DNA from: a virus
Lineage: Duplodnaviria; Heunggongvirae; Uroviricota; Caudoviricetes
DNA length: 9,218 bases
IMG/VR virus record: IMGVR_UViG_2534681649_000003
Strand: one strand, 5' to 3'
The first letter of the stretch is position 1; each line of letters opens with the position of its first letter. Positions 65 through 9,218 of this stretch are shown here, one piece after another. Both the position numbers and the translations under genes were made by a program. Below the pieces are notes generated by a model that did no database searches, was not told the DNA's origin, and was given only the letters and a program-made list of their open reading frames with translations.

Positions 65-367
65 ATGAGCAGAAAAAACCAACGTTACTCTAAAGAGTTC
101 AAAGCCGAAACTGTCAGAACGGTTCTTGAAAATCAACTTTCGAACAGTGAAGGCGCTTCCCGATTATCCCTTCCTGAAGGCACTTTAGGACAATGGGTTA
201 CCGCCGCCAGAAAAGGGCTCGGTACTCCTGGTTCCCGCACGGTGGCTGAACTGGAATCTGAAATTCTGCAACTGCGTAAGGCGTTAAATGAAGCTCGCCT
301 TGAGCGAGATATATTAAAAAAAGCAACAGCGTATTTTGCACAGGAGTCGCTGAAAAATACGCGTTAA
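65..367 (+). CDS. IS3-family transposase OrfA (HTH DNA-binding subunit), IS600-like
   Basis: 100-aa ORF with the characteristic C-terminal leucine-zipper-like segment (...LQLRKALNEARLERDILKKATAYFA...) ending just after an A7 slippery run; ATG at 65 preceded by GGAG. Confidence 0.9.
   Translation: MSRKNQRYSKEFKAETVRTVLENQLSNSEGASRLSLPEGTLGQWVTAARKGLGTPGSRTVAELESEILQLRKALNEARLERDILKKATAYFAQESLKNTR
316..362 (+). promoter_or_regulatory. Programmed -1 ribosomal frameshift site of IS600: A7 slippery run plus downstream hairpin
   Basis: AAAAAAA at 316-322 (codons TTA AAA AAA GCA in orfA frame) followed 6 nt later by a 9-bp perfect stem GCGTATTTT (329-337) / AAAATACGC (354-362) with a 16-nt loop; orfA stop at 365-367 lies just beyond. 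Confidence 0.75.
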
Positions 368-402
368 TCGAACAATGGCGACAACAATTTCCCATTGAAG
401 CG

Positions 403-1221
403 ATGTGTCAGGTATTTGGTGTATCCAGGAGCGGTTATTACAACTGGGTACAGCATGAACCCTCAGACAGAAAACAAAGTGATGAGCGGCTAAAACTGGA
501 GATTAAGGTGGCACATATCCGCACTCGCGAAACATATGGAACCCGGCGGCTCCAGACGGAGCTGGCAGAGAATGGCATCATCGTTGGTCGTGACCGACTG
601 GCACGTCTTCGTAAGGAGCTAAGGCTACGCTGTAAGCAGAAACGCAAGTTCAGAGCGACTACGAACCCGAACCACAATCTGCCAGTTGCGCCAAATCTGC
701 TGAACCAGACGTTCGCTCCTACAGCACCAAATCAGGTCTGGGTGGCGGACCTGACGTATGTTGCCACACAGGAGGGATGGTTGTACCTCGCTGGCATCAA
801 AGATGTTTATACGTGCGAAATTGTCGGCTACGCCATGGGAGAGCGCATGACAAAAGAGCTGACAGGTAAAGCCCTGTTTATGGCGCTCAGGAGCCAGCGC
901 CCACCTGCCGGGCTAATCCACCACTCTGATCGAGGTTCACAGTACTGCGCATACGATTACCGGGTCATACAGGAGCAGTCTGGTCTGAAAACATCAATGT
1001 CGCGTAAAGGTCACTGTTACGACAACGCTCCGATGGAAAGCTTCTGGGGAACGCTGAAAAATGAGAGCCTGAGCCACTATCGTTTTAATAACCGGGATGA
1101 AGCCATCTCAGTAATACGGGAATACATTGAGATTTTCTACAATCGTCAGCGTCGTCACTCTCGTCTGGGGAATATCTCCCCGGCAGCCTTCAGGGAAAAA
1201 TATCATCAGATGGCTGCTTAA
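403..1221 (+). CDS. IS3-family transposase OrfB (DDE catalytic domain), expressed as OrfAB fusion by -1 frameshift
   Basis: 272-aa ORF in the -1 frame relative to orfA. This frame is open from 304, so a -1 slip at 316-322 fuses OrfA to OrfB. Contains integrase-core motifs (VWVADLTYV..., HHSDRGSQY..., ESFWGTLKNE) typical of IS3-family OrfB. Confidence 0.9.
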   Translation: MCQVFGVSRSGYYNWVQHEPSDRKQSDERLKLEIKVAHIRTRETYGTRRLQTELAENGIIVGRDRLARLRKELRLRCKQKRKFRATTNPNHNLPVAPNLLNQTFAPTAPNQVWVADLTYVATQEGWLYLAGIKDVYTCEIVGYAMGERMTKELTGKALFMALRSQRPPAGLIHHSDRGSQYCAYDYRVIQEQSGLKTSMSRKGHCYDNAPMESFWGTLKNESLSHYRFNNRDEAISVIREYIEIFYNRQRRHSRLGNISPAAFREKYHQMAA

Positions 1222-3770: not shown

Positions 3771-4046
3771 GTGGCTTCCATTTCCATCAGATGTCCTTCC
3801 TGCTCCGCTACTGAAGGCGTGGTGCGTAACGGCAAAAGCACTGCCGGACATCAGCGCTATCTCTGCTCTCATTGCCGTAAAACATGGCAACTACAGTTCA
3901 CTTACACCGCCTCTCAGCCCGGTACGCACCAGAAAATCATTGATATGGCCATGAATGGCGTCGGATGTCGCGCCAGTGCACGCATTATGGGCGTTGGCCT
4001 CAACACGGTTTTACGTCACTTAAAAAACTCAGGCCGCAGTCGGTAA
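3771..4046 (+). CDS. insA: IS1 InsA (transposition inhibitor / DNA-binding protein)
   Basis: 91-aa product [40 protein letters not shown]... matches IS1 InsA; GTG start; the -1 frameshift motif AAAAAAC (4022-4028) lies near its 3' end. Confidence 0.95.
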
Positions 4047-4072
4047 CCTCGCGCATATAACCGGGCAGTGAT

Positions 4073-4468
4073 GTGATTGTCTGCGCTGAAATGGACGAAC
4101 AGTGGGGCTACGTCGGTGCTAAATCACGTCAGCGCTGGCTGTTTTACGCGTATGACAGGATACGGAGGACGGTTGTGGCGCACGTCTTCGGTGAACGCAC
4201 TCTGGCCACACTGGAGCGTCTTCTGAGCCTGCTGTCGGCCTTTGAGGTCGTGGTATGGATGACGGATGGCTGGCCGCTGTATGAATCACGCCTGAAGGGA
4301 AAGCTGCACGTTATCAGCAAGCGTTACACTCAGCGCATTGAGCGACATAATCTGAATCTGAGACAACATCTGGCAAGGCTGGGACGGAAGTCACTGTCGT
4401 TCTCAAAATCGGTGGAGCTGCATGACAAGGTCATCGGGCATTATCTGAACATAAAACACTATCAGTAA
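4073..4468 (+). CDS. insB: IS1 InsB frame (transposase catalytic part; made as InsAB' fusion by -1 frameshift)
   Basis: Product ...[41 protein letters not shown]... matches IS1 InsB; frame is -1 relative to insA. Confidence 0.9.
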
Positions 4469-4563: not shown

Positions 4564-5019
4564 TTATTCAGTTTTTATTCCTGCTCTCAAAACAGCCTCT
4601 GCCATTCTGATATCCGGATTTTCTGAAATCATCTTTTCCGGCGAGTCGCAATCACCACCACATTCAGTTATGCGTTCATGACCAAAACGAATTGTGGTTT
4701 TGTGCGCATTAATCATTTGTGTAAGCGCATCTGTCAATTCTGCAATGCGTTTGTCTTTAACTTCCAGCTCTTTCAGTAAAGCCAGTACGTCAGGAGCGCT
4801 AACATCAACGACGGTTACGCGCGATTTCAGGTAATGCTCATCCGCAAAAGTTCGACCAGTTTTAAAATATCCATCATCCCCCTCACCTGTGCAGGCATAC
4901 ACAATATGCGTTCTGGAAAATATGCGCTGTATCGACATTTCATCGCCACAAACAGGACATTCCGGCACCTGAATTGGTGAATAACGTTCACGTAATGCCT
5001 GGTAATTAGTCTTGCACAC
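4564..5019 (-). CDS. Hypothetical prophage protein with N-terminal CxxC zinc-ribbon-like motif (151 aa)
   Basis: ORF with GTG start at 5019 preceded by AGGAG (7-nt spacing); contains CPVCG...C and C-terminal ECGGDC cysteine clusters; start overlaps the stop of the upstream gene by 14 nt. Vaguely resembles Ead/Ea22-type lambdoid accessory proteins from memory; unverified. Confidence 0.7.
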   Translation of the reverse strand: MCKTNYQALRERYSPIQVPECPVCGDEMSIQRIFSRTHIVYACTGEGDDGYFKTGRTFADEHYLKSRVTVVDVSAPDVLALLKELEVKDKRIAELTDALTQMINAHKTTIRFGHERITECGGDCDSPEKMISENPDIRMAEAVLRAGIKTE

Positions 5020-5311
5020 TGGCTGTCTCCTGAAAAATCACCGCATGCCCCAGTTTCTCCGCCAGCGCCAGTTCTGCCTTAGCGCCTGCTGACCGCTGCC
5101 AGCCTTTCAGCATGTAAATCGCATCCACACAACGAATCATCGCCATGCAGATATCCATGTACTGCGGCTGTGTCAGCCCGTCCGGAAGTACTGCCGGGTT
5201 TAAGACGGTATGCCCTTCCCGTTTCAGTTCCTCTTCCGCATTGTGAAACGCCTCACGGTTGAAATTTTTATACCCGGTCATTGGACCGGCGATATAGACT
5301 CTCACCCTCAC
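5006..5311 (-). CDS. DUF4406-family protein (nucleoside 2-deoxyribosyltransferase-like fold), prophage accessory gene
   Basis: 101-aa product MRVRVYIAGPMTGYKNFNREAFHNAEEELKREGHTVLNPA... carries the YIAGPMTG...F..A...L...GH.V.NP signature I associate with DUF4406; GTG start at 5311 preceded by AGGAGG; GTGA start/stop overlap with upstream gene. Confidence 0.8.
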   Translation of the reverse strand: MRVRVYIAGPMTGYKNFNREAFHNAEEELKREGHTVLNPAVLPDGLTQPQYMDICMAMIRCVDAIYMLKGWQRSAGAKAELALAEKLGHAVIFQETASVQD

Positions 5312-5730
5312 GCCATCACCTCCTGAAAATTACCCTGATAAAACGACAATATGCGCTGCATAACTTCGCTCTTCCGGCACTCGCGACAGATTATGTTTAG
5401 GCGACTGTCGTAGCGACGTATTTCTCCGTCAGGTAATGACCAGATAAGGTCCGGATCAACCGCAGATGGTTTCTTCAGCTTTGCCCTTGAGAGCTTTTTA
5501 CGGGCATTTTGCCAGTCCTTACGCGCCTGTTCAGACGGGAATAACCCGTAACCAGAGTTGTATACATCGCCACTGGCAACCAGCTCTCTGGCCAGAACGC
5601 TCATCAGATATCTTGTTGCCCCAGTTTTAGCTTCCAGTTGTCGTAACGTCTCGCGCCCACTCTGGCGTACGAGTTCAAGAACCTGCCCTTTAATTTTTTC
5701 CCGCTCTTCTTGTGTAAAAACTTTTGCCAC
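5308..5730 (-). CDS. Hypothetical prophage protein (140 aa), basic, with C-terminal CxxC pair
   Basis: ORF with GTG start at 5730 preceded by AGGAGG; no family recognised. Occupies the position where lambda P / DnaC-like helicase loaders usually sit but does not resemble them. Confidence 0.75.
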   Translation of the reverse strand: MAKVFTQEEREKIKGQVLELVRQSGRETLRQLEAKTGATRYLMSVLARELVASGDVYNSGYGLFPSEQARKDWQNARKKLSRAKLKKPSAVDPDLIWSLPDGEIRRYDSRLNIICRECRKSEVMQRILSFYQGNFQEVMA

Positions 5731-5770
5731 AAGCCCTCCTGAAAATTACCTCATGACCAGAAATTAACAC

Positions 5771-6841
5771 TTACTCCCTGAAGCCCGGCGGAATTTCGTT
5801 ATCCGGTTCAGAAATATGATTCACACAACGCTGGTTGTTCGTGCCGCTTACCGGGAGCAACCAGGGGTTCTCAAAATTCCGGTCCGGTCCAAAAAACGTC
5901 GTCGCTCGCTGAACAAATTCCGTTCCCGTTTTCCCGGTAGCCGCCAGGTATCTTGCGTAACGCCTCACGCCATCCAGCATGGCCTCTGGTGGCACCCCCT
6001 CGCGTAATCTGGCCTTCCAGGCACTGAAAGCGGATTTCTTCGGGTTTGCCCCGGCACGCAACGGGTACTCCCGCCAGACCTGTTCGAACACATCCGGATA
6101 ATCCACTCGTCCCACAGACTGCCCGGTGTTTTCCGGGACTACCCGATCGGCTTCCCGCTGAATGGCGGAATCGGCTTCAGGCTGCTGCAGTTGGTGTGAT
6201 TGCTCCGGACTTGCGGTCATCGCCTGCTGCACAGCGCCCGAATCGGCTTTCAGCGCATACGCTGAATCGGCTTCCGGTGTCGTGCCTGCTGGCTGACCAG
6301 GATTGACGGTCTGAACATCCCCTGCCTGGTTCGTGGCGTTTTTTACGCCATGGACCATAGTGTTTTGATCTTCTTGATCTGTATCTTTATCTGTATCTTT
6401 ATCTGTCGTGACTCGTCGTGACATGTGCGTGACATATCGTGACGCGCCGTGACAATCGCCATTTTGTTCCCGCTTTCTTTCCCTCTCTCGCTGCGCCCTC
6501 TTGCGCTCTGCAGGAGATTTTGCGGTTTGCGAAATATTGCCGTTGTCCTCTTTCAGCACCTGGCGTTTTTCCCATCCAGTGATTAAATCACCATCAAGTA
6601 CCCGCCCCTGCATCGTCTGCAAAATTGAATCAATTACCTCTTCTGTCACGTCGAGCGCACTTGCCAAATCTTCTGTCGTGACATCAATGTGACCTCGCGT
6701 GACATTTCGTGACGCGCTCACCAGGAGGTGGATATACACTGCCATCACTGTTGCAATTGGCTGCCCTGACACCCTGGCAATTGTTCGCCACTTAGGGTCA
6801 TTTGGCATGTCATGCCATAATCTGAGCCAGGCGTTAGCCAT
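5771..6841 (-). CDS. Putative phage replication initiation protein (lambda O-like position), 356 aa
   Basis: Long ORF directly downstream of the cro-like and YdaT-like genes; preferred start ATG 6839-6841 (MANAWLRLWHDMPNDPKW...) with SD AGAGGTGA. The coding sequence contains phased DNA repeat arrays (see repeat features), as ori-lambda does inside gene O. Functional call is by synteny and repeats, not recognised homology. Confidence 0.75.
   Translation of the reverse strand: MANAWLRLWHDMPNDPKWRTIARVSGQPIATVMAVYIHLLVSASRNVTRGHIDVTTEDLASALDVTEEVIDSILQTMQGRVLDGDLITGWEKRQVLKEDNGNISQTAKSPAERKRAQRERERKREQNGDCHGASRYVTHMSRRVTTDKDTDKDTDQEDQNTMVHGVKNATNQAGDVQTVNPGQPAGTTPEADSAYALKADSGAVQQAMTASPEQSHQLQQPEADSAIQREADRVVPENTGQSVGRVDYPDVFEQVWREYPLRAGANPKKSAFSAWKARLREGVPPEAMLDGVRRYARYLAATGKTGTEFVQRATTFFGPDRNFENPWLLPVSGTNNQRCVNHISEPDNEIPPGFRE
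6146..6273. repeat. Four copies of ATCGGCTT (GAATCGGCTT context) spaced 24/72/24 bp inside the replication gene
   Basis: Copies at 6146, 6170, 6242, 6266; spacing in multiples of 3 and 24, encoding repeated (P)EADS(A) peptide units on the minus strand. Confidence 0.7.
6377..6453. repeat. Candidate origin-type repeat block: tandem 12-bp ATCTGTATCTTT (x2 plus partial) followed by five CGTGAC repeats at 10-11 bp phasing
   Basis: ATCTGTATCTTT at 6377-6388 and 6389-6400; CGTGAC at 6407, 6417, 6428, 6438, 6448 (spacing 10, 11, 10, 10). Two GATC sites lie just upstream (6367-6370, 6376-6379). The repeat is read in all three codon phases (CHG, ASR, YVT, MSR, VT), so it is constrained at the DNA level. 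Confidence 0.6.
6645..6713. repeat. Second phased GTGAC array (four direct copies at 10-11 bp spacing plus one inverted copy)
   Basis: GTGAC at 6678, 6689, 6699, 6709 (spacing 11, 10, 10), each in a TCGTGAC-like context; inverted GTCACG at 6645-6650; TTCTGTC precedes two copies. Confidence 0.6.
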
Positions 6842-6912
6842 ACTCACCTCTTTTGATACCGAATCTTTTTACTCACAAATTGCCGGAAGTGATCCGGTAT
6901 GAATATTGCGAG

Positions 6913-7338
6913 TCAATGCACAGCCACAATATTTCCTGCAGGGCCACCACGATTCATCTGGTTGAAACCAGCGATCGCCACTGCGACAAAATCATCAGCG
7001 TCTCTCACCAGTCGTTCCCGCGTCTCCACTAGTTCCCGAAAATAGGCTGAGCTATGGCTGCGCATTCGGGCCACCAGCAGAGGTGGCATTGCTTTTTCGA
7101 TAGCTGGTAACAACGCCTGAATTTTTTTAAGCGCATCAGGGGTGTCTTTCTCCACCCAGCGGAAAATTTTCTGAGTATTGCGAGCCAGGGCTTCCGGATG
7201 GCTGTCGTCATACAGTTCCGGGAACGTCATTCCCAGCTCGAAATACGCTTTGGTAATTTTCGCAGCCGGTACTTTTTCGCCGTCCGGATGCGCCCAGGCA
7301 TTCATCGCCATGCGGATGTGTTCATGCTTGATTTTCAT
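6913..7338 (-). CDS. YdaT-like (CII-position) prophage regulatory protein, 141 aa
   Basis: Begins MKIKHEHI..., which I recall as the N-terminus of Rac prophage YdaT; sits immediately after the cro-like gene with ATGA start/stop overlap (7335-7338), the position of cII/ydaT in lambdoid early-right operons. Confidence 0.7.
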   Translation of the reverse strand: MKIKHEHIRMAMNAWAHPDGEKVPAAKITKAYFELGMTFPELYDDSHPEALARNTQKIFRWVEKDTPDALKKIQALLPAIEKAMPPLLVARMRSHSSAYFRELVETRERLVRDADDFVAVAIAGFNQMNRGGPAGNIVAVH

Positions 7339-7589
7339 GAATCAACTCCCATCAGCTTTTTCGTAGTAGTTTTATTCCTGCCAATAGTTAAAATTGCATC
7401 GGCAGAAAATAATCCGTTTGATGCAAGAGCGATTTTTTCAGCGTAATTTGTTTCGCCGGTATATTCTGTGCGAGGCAATTTTCCGTTATCCATCCATTTA
7501 TAGATTGCTCTTTGGCTGACACCACAAACGTCGGCCACAACAGCAACGCGAACAGTTTTGATTACATCTTCAAGTGTTTTCTGGTTCAT
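7335..7589 (-). CDS. Cro/YdaS-like small HTH regulator (84 aa)
   Basis: Preferred start ATG 7587-7589 (MNQKTLEDVIKTV...) with SD GAGG 5 nt upstream; HTH-like segment ...VADVCGVSQRAIYKWMDNGKLP...; divergent from the repressor gene. The ORF-track start at 7661 has no SD and overlaps the operator region. Confidence 0.75.
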   Translation of the reverse strand: MNQKTLEDVIKTVRVAVVADVCGVSQRAIYKWMDNGKLPRTEYTGETNYAEKIALASNGLFSADAILTIGRNKTTTKKLMGVDS

Positions 7590-7668
7590 ATCACCCTCAC
7601 AATGTGAACTTTGAGTACATGCTATAACAGAACTGACAGTACATTCAAGAGCGAATATCATTGAACTT
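7590..7668. promoter_or_regulatory. Divergent promoter/operator region (OR-like) between cro-like and repressor genes
   Basis: Plus strand: -35 CTGACA (7633-7638), 17-nt spacer, -10 TATCAT (7656-7661), predicted start at or next to the ATG at 7669 (leaderless repressor mRNA, as for lambda PRM). Minus strand: -35 TTGAAT (plus 7643-7648), 16-nt spacer, -10 TATAGC (plus 7621-7626) for the cro-like gene. Two direct AGTACAT copies (7614-7620, 7638-7644) overlap these elements. Confidence 0.55.
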
Positions 7669-8088
7669 ATGGTTCATGAAGATAAAGCGCGTAAAGAGTT
7701 CGCCAGTAGGCTTGCGCTAGCCTGTGAAAACGCTGGTTATGAACAACATGGAAGGCAGGCAGAAATTGCCCGTCGAATGAAATTAACACCAAAAGCGGTT
7801 AGCAAATGGTTTAATGGCGAAACAATTCCTCGCCGGGAGAAATTAAGGGAATTAGCAACACTAATAGGAACAACACCAACCTATCTTTTGGGAGAGGATA
7901 CAGAAGAAAGTGGACAGGTACGTTTCTATCAGGAGTTAAATCCAAGACAAAAAATCATCATTGACCTTCTGGACGAGCTCCCTGACAGTGAGACAGATGA
8001 ACTTTTAAAAACTCTTGAAGAGAAAAAACAGAAGTACAATGCAATTTACGAAGAGTTAGCACGAAAGAAAAAACAAAAAGCCTCTTAA
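7669..8088 (+). CDS. CI/DicA-like prophage repressor (XRE-family HTH, no S24 peptidase domain), 139 aa
   Basis: HTH_3-type motif ...RQAEIARRMKLTPKAVSKWFNGETIPRREKLRELATLIGTTPTYLLGE...; acidic/basic C-terminal tail but no LexA-like Ala-Gly/Ser-Lys cleavage module; divergent from the cro-like gene; no SD before the ATG. Confidence 0.85.
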   Translation: MVHEDKARKEFASRLALACENAGYEQHGRQAEIARRMKLTPKAVSKWFNGETIPRREKLRELATLIGTTPTYLLGEDTEESGQVRFYQELNPRQKIIIDLLDELPDSETDELLKTLEEKKQKYNAIYEELARKKKQKAS

Positions 8089-8406: not shown

Positions 8407-8845
8407 TAATGACTCCAACTTACTGATAGTGTTTTATGTTCAGATAATGCCCGATGACCTTGTCATGCAGCTCCACCGATTTTGAGAACGACAGTGACTT
8501 CCGTCCCAGCCTTGCCAGATGTTGTCTCAGATTCAGATTATGTCGCTCAATGCGCTGAGTGTAACGCTTGCTGATAACGTGCAGCTTTCCCTTCAGGCGT
8601 GATTCATACAGCGGCCAGCCATCCGTCATCCATACCACGACCTCAAAGGCCGACAGCAGGCTCAGAAGACGCTCCAGTGTGGCCAGAGTGCGTTCACCGA
8701 AGACGTGCGCCACAACCGTCCTCCGTATCCTGTCATACGCGTAAAACAGCCAGCGCTGACGTGATTTAGCACCGACGTAGCCCCACTGTTCGTCCATTTC
8801 AGCGCAGACAATCACATCACTGCCCGGTTGTATGCGCGAGGTTAC
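8405..8845 (-). mobile_element. IS1 remnant, inverted relative to the first copy, truncated at IS1 position ~328 by IS2
   Basis: Begins with the IS1 insB-proximal terminal repeat GGTAATGACTCCAACTTACTGAT at 8405; spot-checked segments are identical to the first copy, with one mismatch found (copy 1 position 4058 T vs C here at 8830); IS1 homology stops at 8845, where an IS2 terminus begins. Confidence 0.9.
8420..8815 (-). CDS. insB: IS1 insB frame in truncated copy (no insA, so no functional InsAB' transposase)
   Basis: Protein identical to InsB of the first copy over its length; the ORF-track product extends upstream as an artefactual read-through into the IS2 end. Confidence 0.8.
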
Positions 8846-9218
8846 TGGATTTGCCCCTATATTTCCAGACATCTGTTATCACTTAACCCATTACAAGCCC
8901 GCTGCCGCAGATATTCCCGTGGCGAGCGATAACCCAGCGCACTATGCGGATGCCATTCGTTATAATGCTCGAACGCCTCTGCAAGGTTCTTTGCTGCCGT
9001 TAACCCGTCTGGTTTGGGCATGATACTGATGTAGTCACGCTTTATCGTTTTCACGAAGCTCTCTGCTATTCCGTTACTCTCCGGACTCCGCACCGCCGTG
9101 TTCTTCGGTTCAAGTCCCAACATCCGGGCGAACTGGCGTGTTTCATTAGCCCGGTAGCATGAACCATTATCCGTCAGCCACTCCACTGGAGACGACGGAA
9201 GATCGTTGCCGAAGCGGC
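8846..9218 (-). mobile_element. IS2 right end (partial; continues beyond window)
   Basis: Starts with TGGATTTGCCCCTATATTTCCAGACATCTGTTATCACTTAACC, the reverse complement of the IS2 right terminal repeat as I recall it, followed by the C-terminal coding region of the IS2 transposase. Confidence 0.85.
8857..9218 (-). CDS. insD: IS2 transposase OrfB (InsD) C-terminal portion; N-terminus outside window
   Basis: Translation ...[119 protein letters not shown] matches the IS2 InsD C-terminus; frame is open to the window edge. Confidence 0.85.

Follow-up and report, generated by a model that had tools for sequence, protein, structure and literature searches.

A 16-nt sequence preceding consecutive genes in a prophage operon turned out to be a gene boundary of a type already known in phages, of which it is a clear instance, and not a new element. 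In the window (the whole 9,218-nt stretch of DNA that was analyzed, from the Caudoviricetes record IMGVR_UViG_2534681649_000003), this 16-mer occurs twice as an exact copy and once as a near copy. Our best explanation, which we consider probable, is that it serves translation initiation at gene junctions and that tightly packed cassettes have come to share it through descent and exchange; its SD part would have been retained by selection for translation.

The genes belong to the rightward early operon of a Rac-type lambdoid prophage (E. coli/Shigella), which is tightly packed and has accessory cassettes just past the replication genes, all on the minus strand. Upstream of the first copy lies a replication initiator/replisome organizer gene (5771–6847; phrog_3729, 1e-254), whose RefSeq homologs begin at an ATG 6 nt downstream of the GTG in the list of open reading frames (ORFs) and whose TAA stop (5773–5771) is 40 nt before the lygF start. 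lygF (5308–5730, GTG start) encodes a 140-residue DUF977 protein (Pfam PF06163, 3.2e-30, residues 1–136; phrog_142, 7e-47), which is labeled a Ren-like exclusion protein in PHROGs. It is followed by a GTG-start gene for a 101-residue DUF4406 protein (5006–5311; Pfam PF14359, 9.1e-38, residues 4–93; phrog_355), assigned to a family with a nucleoside 2-deoxyribosyltransferase-like fold, and the sequence shared by the lygF TGA (5310–5308) and the DUF4406 GTG is a GTGA overlap at 5308–5311. Next comes a GTG-start gene for a 151-residue Ead/Ea22-like protein (4564–5019; Pfam PF13935, 4.2e-20, and RefSeq annotation of a homolog), which overlaps the 3′ end of the DUF4406 gene by 14 nt (5006–5019). 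The RefSeq coding sequences of a 97% identical locus agree with the lygF, DUF4406, and ead GTGs, and the sequence suggests that the DUF4406 gene uses the first GTG, at 5311, rather than the one at 5305. A lygF–DUF4406 frameshift fusion was rejected, as the sequence ahead of the stop contains no slippery heptamer. Since no promoter-like or terminator-like site was predicted on the minus strand from 7661 to 4564, we consider these genes to form one operon.

The first copy (J1) is the exact 16-mer GGTAATTTTCAGGAGG at 5735–5750, in the noncoding lygF leader, where it consists of an AU-rich tract and an AGGAGG SD and is followed by GCTT and then the GTG at 5730, a spacing of 4 nt. The second (J2) is the same exact 16-mer, GGTAATTTTCAGGAGG, at 5319–5334; it encodes the last conserved lygF codons, G-N-F-Q-E(V), carries the SD for the DUF4406 gene, and is followed by TGATGGC and then the GTG at 5311 (7-nt spacing). 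The third (J3) is the near copy GGTGATTTTTCAGGAG at 5027–5042, which encodes the last conserved DUF4406 codons, V-I-F-Q-E, carries the SD for the Ead/Ea22-like gene, and is followed by ACAGCCA and then the GTG at 5019 (7-nt spacing). The coordinates, the spacings to the three consecutive GTG starts, and the upstream C-terminal peptides at the latter two sites, all of which had been proposed in the initial annotation, were reproduced from the minus strand.

J1 and J2 bracket lygF and were recovered by a repeat search of the window as a pair spaced by 416 nt. Two matches were seen in 0 of 200 dinucleotide shuffles, even with up to three mismatches allowed (mean of 0.07). This bears on the idea that two strong ribosome-binding sites with AU-rich tracts became identical by coincidence or convergence, without shared history, to which we give almost no credence: an AT-rich stretch ahead of AGGAGG is found widely, many unrelated IMG/VR sequences match NGTAATTTTCAGGAGG just upstream of ATG or GTG starts, and J3 taken alone is statistically unconvincing, but besides the shuffles, all 10 non-SD bases are identical in the exact pair, and graded relatives occur at neighboring junctions in many prophages. 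J3 differs from the 16-mer by three edits (two substitutions and one insertion), a quality of match for which 0.26 occurrences are expected per window-sized Markov sequence and of which there is an evident chance example at 7252–7266 on the plus strand; a local-alignment test of J2 against J3 gave a z of only 2.3. Since J3 is weak on statistics, it counts mainly by its location, at the next gene junction and 7 nt before a GTG.

The 10 nt conserved past the SD had been read as more than ribosome binding needs. Initiation regions in E. coli reach ∼20 nt upstream of the start, and the bases in question are upstream codons at J2 and J3, so that this conservation is not remarkable by itself. What does exceed the needs of translation is the 16/16 identity between a coding and a noncoding copy. 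This identity probably reflects common descent or exchange.

The part of the earlier proposal that concerned initiation held well: the motif supplies the SD for each next GTG-start gene. We found an SD, a spacer, and a GTG at all three sites, with AGGAGG and 4 nt at J1, AGGAG and 7 nt at J3, and at J2 an SD extended to AGGAGGTGAT, in which 10 nt are complementary to the 16S 3′ end and the AGGAGG core is 7 nt before the GTG. The suggestion that the motif keeps these genes at low expression fared badly, since the SDs are strong (10 nt against 16S at J2), the spacing is optimal, and the regions are predicted to be unstructured. Folds of ∼111 nt per junction were no more stable than shuffled sequences (z-scores of 0.41, −0.76, and 0.58) and had no structure common to the three junctions, and the 16-mer was unpaired in the centroid folds. 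There was no Rfam family at or near J1–J3, the sole match in the window being sok at 2617–2792. A structured RNA or riboswitch was therefore rejected.

In the mechanism that we propose, the 16-mer combines an AU-rich tract, GGUAAUUUU, with a canonical SD (CAGGAGG) downstream of it, and translation of lygF, DUF4406, and ead would draw on both GGTAATTTT and AGGAGG. At J1, ribosomes would start de novo on lygF, 40 nt past the stop of the replication gene. At J2, the 3′ end of lygF would carry the SD for whichever gene comes next and, since the GTG of that gene overlaps the lygF stop (GTGA), coupled translation would be allowed. J3 would do the equivalent job at the DUF4406/ead junction, where the overlap is 14 nt. 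Translation thus may be coupled both between lygF and DUF4406 and between DUF4406 and ead, as the arrangement of starts and stops suggests; J1 is not coupled because it is 40 nt past the previous stop. J2 and J3 are like the ATGA/GTGA overlaps of translationally coupled genes in phage and bacterial operons, with the SD contained in the final part of the upstream ORF and a distance of 7 nt from SD to start. They differ in that an extended sequence, beyond the SD alone, recurs here at successive junctions.

AU-rich translational enhancers directly 5′ of the SD, such as that in the T7 gene 10 leader, bind ribosomal protein S1. The 16-mer is similar, since its U-rich, unstructured UAAUUUU abuts a strong SD, and by this analogy its AU-rich part may enhance initiation. 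Unlike such enhancers, the tract at J2 and J3 is also constrained as codons (N-F and I-F).

A few variants have departed from this arrangement. In the Stx phages 75/02 and PhiR5_2, the gene after lygF is convergent, and lygF ends in FWRGSAEGLMFSPS and a stop, without AGGAGG, while variants with a damaged SD (CAGAAGG) stand before a truncated remnant ORF. These cases hint at functional constraint on the SD, although only one diverged lineage and anecdotal variants connect its loss with that of a downstream gene.

How widespread the 16-mer is, and in which contexts, was determined in related prophages. There were 143 exact copies in the first 120 IMG/VR loci, 140 of them in two lygF contexts (89 in lygF leaders and 51 at lygF 3′ ends, the latter with varied genes downstream), and both exact copies around lygF were present in 22 of these 120 loci. 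In related prophages, the sequence thus marks cassette boundaries; it is not common in unrelated contexts, which account for only 3 of the 143 copies. The three other first-base variants of the 16-mer had 61 matches together in all of IMG/VR, 15 of which represent one further prophage junction, between Ea22 and the next gene (AAGTAATTTTCAGGAGGATTT ATG). Parts of the 2.4-kb region matched 4,250 of 5,426 E. coli genomes in BLAST searches. Our scan of genome contigs for the 16-mer gave scattered single matches in unrelated phyla and is uninformative, because ∼280 matches are expected by chance (596 Gb, both strands, divided by 4^16). When the whole genome of phage Rac-SA53 was inspected, 3 of 64 gene starts resembled the motif, all three in this region, and it was not found at the other 61. 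A generic phage ribosome-binding site was rejected on this ground.

Next, we mapped where homology ends. BLAST alignments against the 5,426 E. coli genomes and a phage set ended at window positions 5739, 5333–5307, and 5027–5017, and among 73 distinct lygF loci, diversity jumped at the outer edge of each exact 16-mer. It was 0.41 upstream of J1 and 0.25 across J1; 0.08, 0.07, and 0.23 at lygF codon positions 1, 2, and 3; and 0.10 across J2, where the right edge of lygF homology falls. In the spacer that follows it ranged from 0.03 to 0.66 per site (mean of about 0.38); the GTGA overlap was invariant (0.0) whatever gene comes next, and diversity rose to 0.55 past the stop. The sampled loci are mostly close relatives, most with ≥92% protein identity, so that much of the conservation is simply recent ancestry. 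The same sequence joins nonhomologous modules: behind lygF, genes of at least five unrelated families are joined in the identical GTGA register, and the sequence is also found at the O/lygF, ydaV/lygF, and Ea22/next-gene junctions. Likewise, among 80 DUF4406 loci, the conserved part of the protein ends with VIFQE, and the tail then varies with the downstream gene; when the DUF4406 gene is in a non-lygF context, it is preceded by another leader and spacer, and homology begins with the GTG, outside the motif. The three sites are thus boundaries, in line with the module-boundary linker that the initial annotation put forward as a possibility; use of the motif in recombination is conjectural.

Related versions of the sequence occur at neighboring junctions, namely GTGAAGTAATTTTGTCCGGAGG at ydaV/ydaW, GTGAAGTAATTTCAGGAGGACTT at ydaV/lygF, and AAGTGATTGCCGGAGGCGCTT at ydaW/lygF. 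Pairwise local alignments of the O/lygF, ydaV/lygF, and Ea22/next-gene junctions, and of Ea22/next gene with J2, gave z-scores of 6.0–8.9. These similarities suggest that the junction segments of the region are related to one another, through descent and exchange rather than convergence. Such segments would be inherited and exchanged along with the cassettes; the copies would be alike because they belong to one family, and the motif would coincide with mosaic boundaries because these are the places where one cassette replaces another. Among loci, the variant present at J1 is largely independent of that at J2, so nothing actively holds the two copies identical, and concerted evolution of the two was rejected. 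We make no claim that the 21 intergenic nt upstream of J1 are a remnant of a ydaV 3′ end, to which the similarity beyond the motif is 6/11.

The main alternative is that the 16-mer genuinely works in recombination, as a linker or boundary sequence at which RecT, Red-beta, or RecA cross over to exchange cassettes in register, and that it is kept, at least in part, because it enables this shuffling. We consider this unlikely, although some of the evidence would fit it. The homology edges coincide with the motif both in BLAST ends and in diversity, and the identical GTGA register of at least five unrelated families, in most cases GTGAG, is unexpected under random illegitimate joining. The 3′ end of ydaV is identical through GTGAAGTAATTT and then continues into either the ydaW leader or the lygF leader, a partner switch that looks internal to the motif, inside GTAATTT, and the same 15-mer is present at the unrelated Ea22/next-gene junction. 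There is precedent in the boundary sequences of lambdoid phages (Susskind & Botstein 1978; Clark et al. 2001, as cited in PMC3233612 and PMC3029335), and Rad52-like recombinases work on short, diverged homology (PMC3945230). However, minimal efficient pairing segments are 23–27 bp for Red-beta and 31–34 bp for RecA (PMC3945230), and since 16 nt is below these reported minima, a causal role of the motif in recombination is conjectural. Neither exchange product was found in IMG/VR, with 0 matches for the lygF-deletion joint, in which one 16-mer remains and lygF is absent (TCATGAGGTAATTTTCAGGAGGY), and 0 for the tandem-lygF joint (TATCAGGGTAATTTTCAGGAGGRCTT). When E. coli genomes were searched with a synthetic deletion joint, the best 30 of 151 high-coverage matches all had the normal two-piece, 732-bp arrangement. 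Moreover, DUF4406 behind another gene has a different leader and spacer, with homology from the GTG, and boundaries at gene junctions are also expected from random recombination combined with selection for intact genes. A further step, which we regard as improbable, is that GTAATTTTCAGGAGG through GTGAG might be a dual element, both a ribosome-binding site and a preferred annealing site for the single-strand-annealing recombinases of prophages.

It is very doubtful that the motif is an operator common to these genes, at which a translational regulator acting in trans (a T4 RegA-like protein or a small RNA) would bind the common GUAAUUUUCAGGAGG. An extended sequence past the SD does recur within one operon, at three to four of its initiation regions, and is absent from all other gene starts among the 64 of Rac-SA53, and the region, being unstructured, is accessible. 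Yet we found no candidate regulator and no Rfam match in or around the sites, and the extra bases at J2 and J3 are accounted for by codons. The variants GGTAATTTTAAGGGGG, AGTGATTGCCGGAGGC, and GGGAATTATCGGGAGG differ at exactly the positions that a sequence-specific operator would need and serve the same genes nonetheless.

The reading of lygF as a mobile cassette with a 16-bp target duplication or an attC-like site, suggested by the exact 16-bp direct repeats that flank one gene with a 416-bp spacing in 22 of the first 120 IMG/VR loci, is already largely refuted, and we give it scarcely any weight. The empty site expected from it (J1 left flank, one 16-mer, J2 right flank) is absent from IMG/VR, the sites have neither terminal inverted repeats nor a hairpin, and no transposase or integron integrase adjoins the cassette, the insertion sequence copies in the window being elsewhere. 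Furthermore, lygF occurs with different left junctions, such as ydaW/lygF and the PhiR46_1 leader AAGGAGAATCGTA, and keeps its right junction. The region does resemble integron cassettes with attC in its series of promoterless single genes, its recurring boundary element, and a gene order that differs between genomes, but the 16-mer has no attC-type imperfect palindrome, integrase, or excised or empty forms, and at 16 nt it is a ribosome-binding site.

The closest counterpart of the 16-mer is found in the boundary sequences of lambdoid phages (Susskind & Botstein 1978; Clark et al. 2001, for HK620), which, as far as the descriptions in PMC3233612 and PMC3029335 go, are also short sequences at junctions of nonhomologous genes that coincide with the edges of homology blocks, as the 16-mer does. 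The setting is shared as well, namely a lambdoid prophage with a run of accessory genes past the replication genes. The 16-mer differs in being mostly a functional SD region, with upstream codons at two of the three sites, and, set beside the HK620 sequences as described there, it is a putative crossover site below the pairing minima.

According to reviews, boundary sequences cannot be located at most junctions (PMC3029335). The present locus shows such a sequence clearly, and it is found in thousands of sequenced E. coli prophages; with its many independent in-register gene combinations, it offers a readily available set of natural sequences, as well as an experimental entry point, with which to examine the boundary-sequence model. 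As regards annotation, the C-terminal tails of the lygF and DUF4406 proteins past FQE are variable and determined by the junction, and the junction architecture supports the GTG starts. If the dual-element idea were true, small accessory cassettes could be swapped in register between coresident lambdoid prophages, which would amount to a homology-based, integrase-free analog of an integron and would give the boundary-sequence model of phage mosaicism, long under debate, a specific example.

The repeated junctions lie in the immunity and early-right part of a Rac-type lambdoid prophage, which insertion sequence (IS) copies interrupt at other places in the window. On the plus strand lies a divergent HTH_3 (Cro/CI-type) repressor-like gene (7669-8088). 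The minus strand encodes an HTH-domain protein in the Cro position (7335-7661; position and profile match) and, by profile matches, a YdaT-like protein (6913-7338), the phage replication initiator O (5771-6847), the DUF977 protein LygF, a "Ren-like exclusion protein" in PHROGs (5308-5730), a DUF4406, nucleoside 2-deoxyribosyltransferase-like protein (5006-5311), and an Ead/Ea22-like protein (4564-5019). Since no promoter-like or terminator-like sites were predicted on the minus strand from 7661 to 4564, we infer that these genes make up one operon. The same GTG starts are found in the RefSeq annotation of a 97% identical E. coli locus. The ORF call for the replication gene also begins with GTG (6847, minus), but because its RefSeq homologues begin at an ATG 6 nt downstream (GTG AGT ATG GCT..; 6841-6847), it is probably not a fourth GTG-start gene. 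Within this gene lie iteron-like CGTGAC arrays, ~10 nt apart (GTCGTGACATGTGCGTGACATATCGTGACGCGCCGTGAC; 6415-6453 and 6675-6713, also 6402-6412/6672-6682), which, by comparison with lambda, whose ori lies inside O, probably represent the phage origin.

Read on the minus strand, the reference for all junction coordinates, the exact 16-mer GGTAATTTTCAGGAGG occurs twice, with a spacing of 416 nt in a repeat search of the window. At J1 (5750..5735), it is followed by GCTT and the GTG at 5730 of lygF (140-aa ORF, 5730..5308) and, at J2 (5334..5319), by TGATGGC and the GTG at 5311 of the DUF4406 gene (101-aa ORF, 5311..5006). The near copy GGTGATTTTTCAGGAG (J3, 5042..5027) is followed by ACAGCCA and the GTG at 5019 of the Ead/Ea22-like gene (151-aa ORF, 5019..4564). 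The initial annotation, which described two exact copies and a near copy before GTG starts, was thus correct, also in that the motif encodes C-terminal residues of upstream proteins: J2 codes for G-N-F-Q-E-(V) of the 140-aa ORF, whose TGA stop overlaps the next GTG as GTGA, and J3 for V-I-F-Q-E of the 101-aa ORF. Two matches to the 16-mer were seen in 0/200 dinucleotide shuffles with three mismatches permitted. J3 is three edits away from the 16-mer, a quality expected 0.26 times per window and shared by an evident chance match at 7252-7266 (plus strand), and its similarity to J2 has a z of 2.3; we count it as a copy on account of where it lies rather than its similarity score. An exact 12-nt direct repeat, CCTCACGCCATC, with one copy across the lygF stop/DUF4406 start overlap (5306-5317) and the other within the replication gene (5963-5974; plus-strand coordinates), is probably due to chance.

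An exact scan of IMG/VR found the 16-mer in at least 120 loci. When its occurrences were counted, as the initial annotation had proposed, 140 of the 143 in the 120 loci listed were in lygF contexts: 89 in the lygF leader (..TCATGA, 16-mer, GCTT GTG GCAAAAG) and 51 at the lygF 3' end (..TTTTATCAG, 16-mer, N7 GTGA..). The remaining 3 were in unrelated contexts, and both copies were present in 22 of these 120 loci. Because lygF-end contexts dominate, the 16-mer is not a generic repeat and is bound to the two ends of lygF. Three other first-base variants combined had 61 matches in all of IMG/VR, giving a background of ~15-20 per 16-mer, and 15 of the 61 represent one further prophage junction (between Ea22 and the next gene). 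When one genome per species was scanned, the matches were single and scattered over unrelated phyla, in line with the ~280 expected by chance. In the complete genome of phage Rac-SA53, 3/64 annotated starts resemble the 16-mer (scores of 12.5, 11.5, and 9.5 vs. ≤8 for the others), and all three fall in this region, where GTG starts cluster too.

Parts of the 2.4-kb region were matched in 4,250/5,426 complete E. coli genomes by BLAST, with alignments recurrently starting at window 5833 or 5739 (the latter inside J1) and ending at 5333-5307 (J2) or 5027-5017 (J3). The best full-length match (97.4%), NZ_JBRERL010000002.1, is labelled a 261-kb E. coli plasmid and may be a phage-plasmid or reflect an assembly or labelling issue; the other top matches are all chromosomal prophages. 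We also aligned 73 distinct lygF loci found by protein similarity. Nucleotide diversity was 0.41 in the 40 nt upstream of J1, 0.25 in J1, 0.08, 0.07, and 0.23 at lygF codon positions 1, 2, and 3, 0.10 in J2, 0.03-0.66 per site (mean about 0.38) in the 7-nt spacer after J2, 0.0 in GTGA, and 0.55 after the lygF stop. The conserved lygF block therefore extends from the 5' end of J1 to the 3' end of J2. Downstream of it, at least five unrelated gene families occur in the same GTGA register, most beginning GTGAG: DUF4406, an 84-88-aa "MSESKCQ" family, "MSAPATILDMCCGS", Ead-like genes and remnants, and "MNIDTTIT". In 80 DUF4406 loci, conservation runs through ..LGHAVIFQE, beyond which both the tail and the next gene are variable. 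BLAST ends and diversity jumps fall on J1 and J2, and BLAST ends also on J3, which bears out the idea that the 16-mer sites are module boundaries.

Related sequences are found at other junctions. The ydaV-ydaW junction is GTGAAGTAATTTTGTCCGGAGG..ATG; 17 loci have exactly this ydaV end but run on from it as GTGAAGTAATTTCAGGAGGACTT ATG/GTG-lygF. Between ydaW and lygF, the sequence is AAGTGATTGCCGGAGGCGCTT or AAGTGATTCCAGGGGAGGGCTT and, between Ea22 and the next gene, AAGTAATTTTCAGGAGGATTT ATG (phage PhiR46_1 and 15 IMG/VR loci). These versions have the upstream stop (TAA or TGA) inside GT(A/G)ATT. Local alignments of the O-lygF, ydaV-lygF, and Ea22-next-gene junctions, and of the latter with J2, have z = 6.0-8.9 vs. 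shuffles. The about 21 nt between the replication-gene stop and J1 (5751-5770, minus), GTGTTAATTTCTGGTCATGA, hold a degenerate second copy of the left half of the motif (GTTAATTTCTGG vs. GTAATTTTCAGG), perhaps the remains of an earlier junction; GTTAATTGGG lies at a similar offset in the Ea22-next-gene junction by local alignment. A second junction type behaves in the same way: an unnamed gene has the 3' end ..GTTTATTTCGACAGGAGG with GTG starts 8-9 nt on (L286:5443, L123:2501), and the genes that follow differ between prophages: one has DUF4406 there, another an unrelated ORF.

The Shine-Dalgarno sites (SDs) at the junctions are strong and optimally spaced; at J2, the SD region is AGGAGGTGAT, ten bases of which can pair with the 3' end of 16S rRNA. 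The motif thus supplies the SD for the following GTG-start genes, as first proposed, while the accompanying suggestion that these genes are kept at low expression is unsupported given such SDs. Conservation does extend beyond the SD, but the Pfam models end at ..VIF (DUF4406) and ..GNFQ (DUF977), so at J2 and J3 some of this "extra" conservation simply reflects protein coding. In Stx phages 75/02 and PhiR5_2, where a convergent gene follows lygF (64-66% identical), the lygF 3' end is ..FWRGSAEGLMFSPS and stop, without AGGAGG, and CAGAAGG variants stand before a 20-aa remnant ORF. These few lineages suggest that the SD portion is retained for the sake of the downstream gene.

That the joints are all in register, and that the ydaV end switches between the ydaW and lygF leaders, could mean that the junction sequence itself causes the cassette exchanges. 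Against this, the sequence is shorter than the minimal pairing segments of 23-27 bp for Red-beta and 31-34 bp for RecA (PMC3945230), homology in the DUF4406 case starts at the GTG, and products of unequal exchange are missing. Recombination products of J1 and J2 (lygF deletion or tandem lygF) are absent from IMG/VR, and the top 30 of 151 high-coverage E. coli hits to a synthetic lygF-deletion joint all have the normal arrangement. J1 and J2 variants assort independently among loci; hence the identity of the copies is not actively maintained. A structured regulatory RNA was rejected, because folding, another suggestion of the initial annotation, gave no stability above shuffled controls around any of the three junctions, with the motif unpaired in centroid structures and no Rfam match there, as was a mobile cassette, since the sites have neither an inverted repeat nor a recombinase close by.

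The only Rfam match in the window is a sok antitoxin RNA (2617-2792, minus; 115.6 bits), which overlaps a 70-aa Mok/Hok-like ORF (2467-2679, minus; ..MKQQKAMLIALIVICLTVIVTALVTRKDLCEVRIRTGQTEVAVFTAYEPEE). Together they form a type I toxin-antitoxin locus of the hok/sok type, and related prophages have hokD annotated in the corresponding position. The prophage is cut up by insertion sequences at 65-1221 (+), 3771-4468 (+), 8420-8872 (-), and 8857-9186 (-), comprising an IS3-family orfA/orfB pair resembling IS600, two copies of IS1, and a further IS3-family transposase fragment. Their density suggests a Shigella-like host and a late region that was replaced or truncated.

In the best-supported reading, the junction would be a translation-initiation segment, an AU-rich tract plus SD, that tightly packed accessory cassettes would have in common through descent and exchange and that coincides with mosaic boundaries. 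Such a segment fits the "short conserved boundary sequences" that Susskind and Botstein (1978) and Clark et al. (2001), cited in PMC3233612 and PMC3029335, put forward for lambdoid phages. The repeat is real and explained; rather than a new type of element, it is a good example of an already known kind of phage gene boundary.
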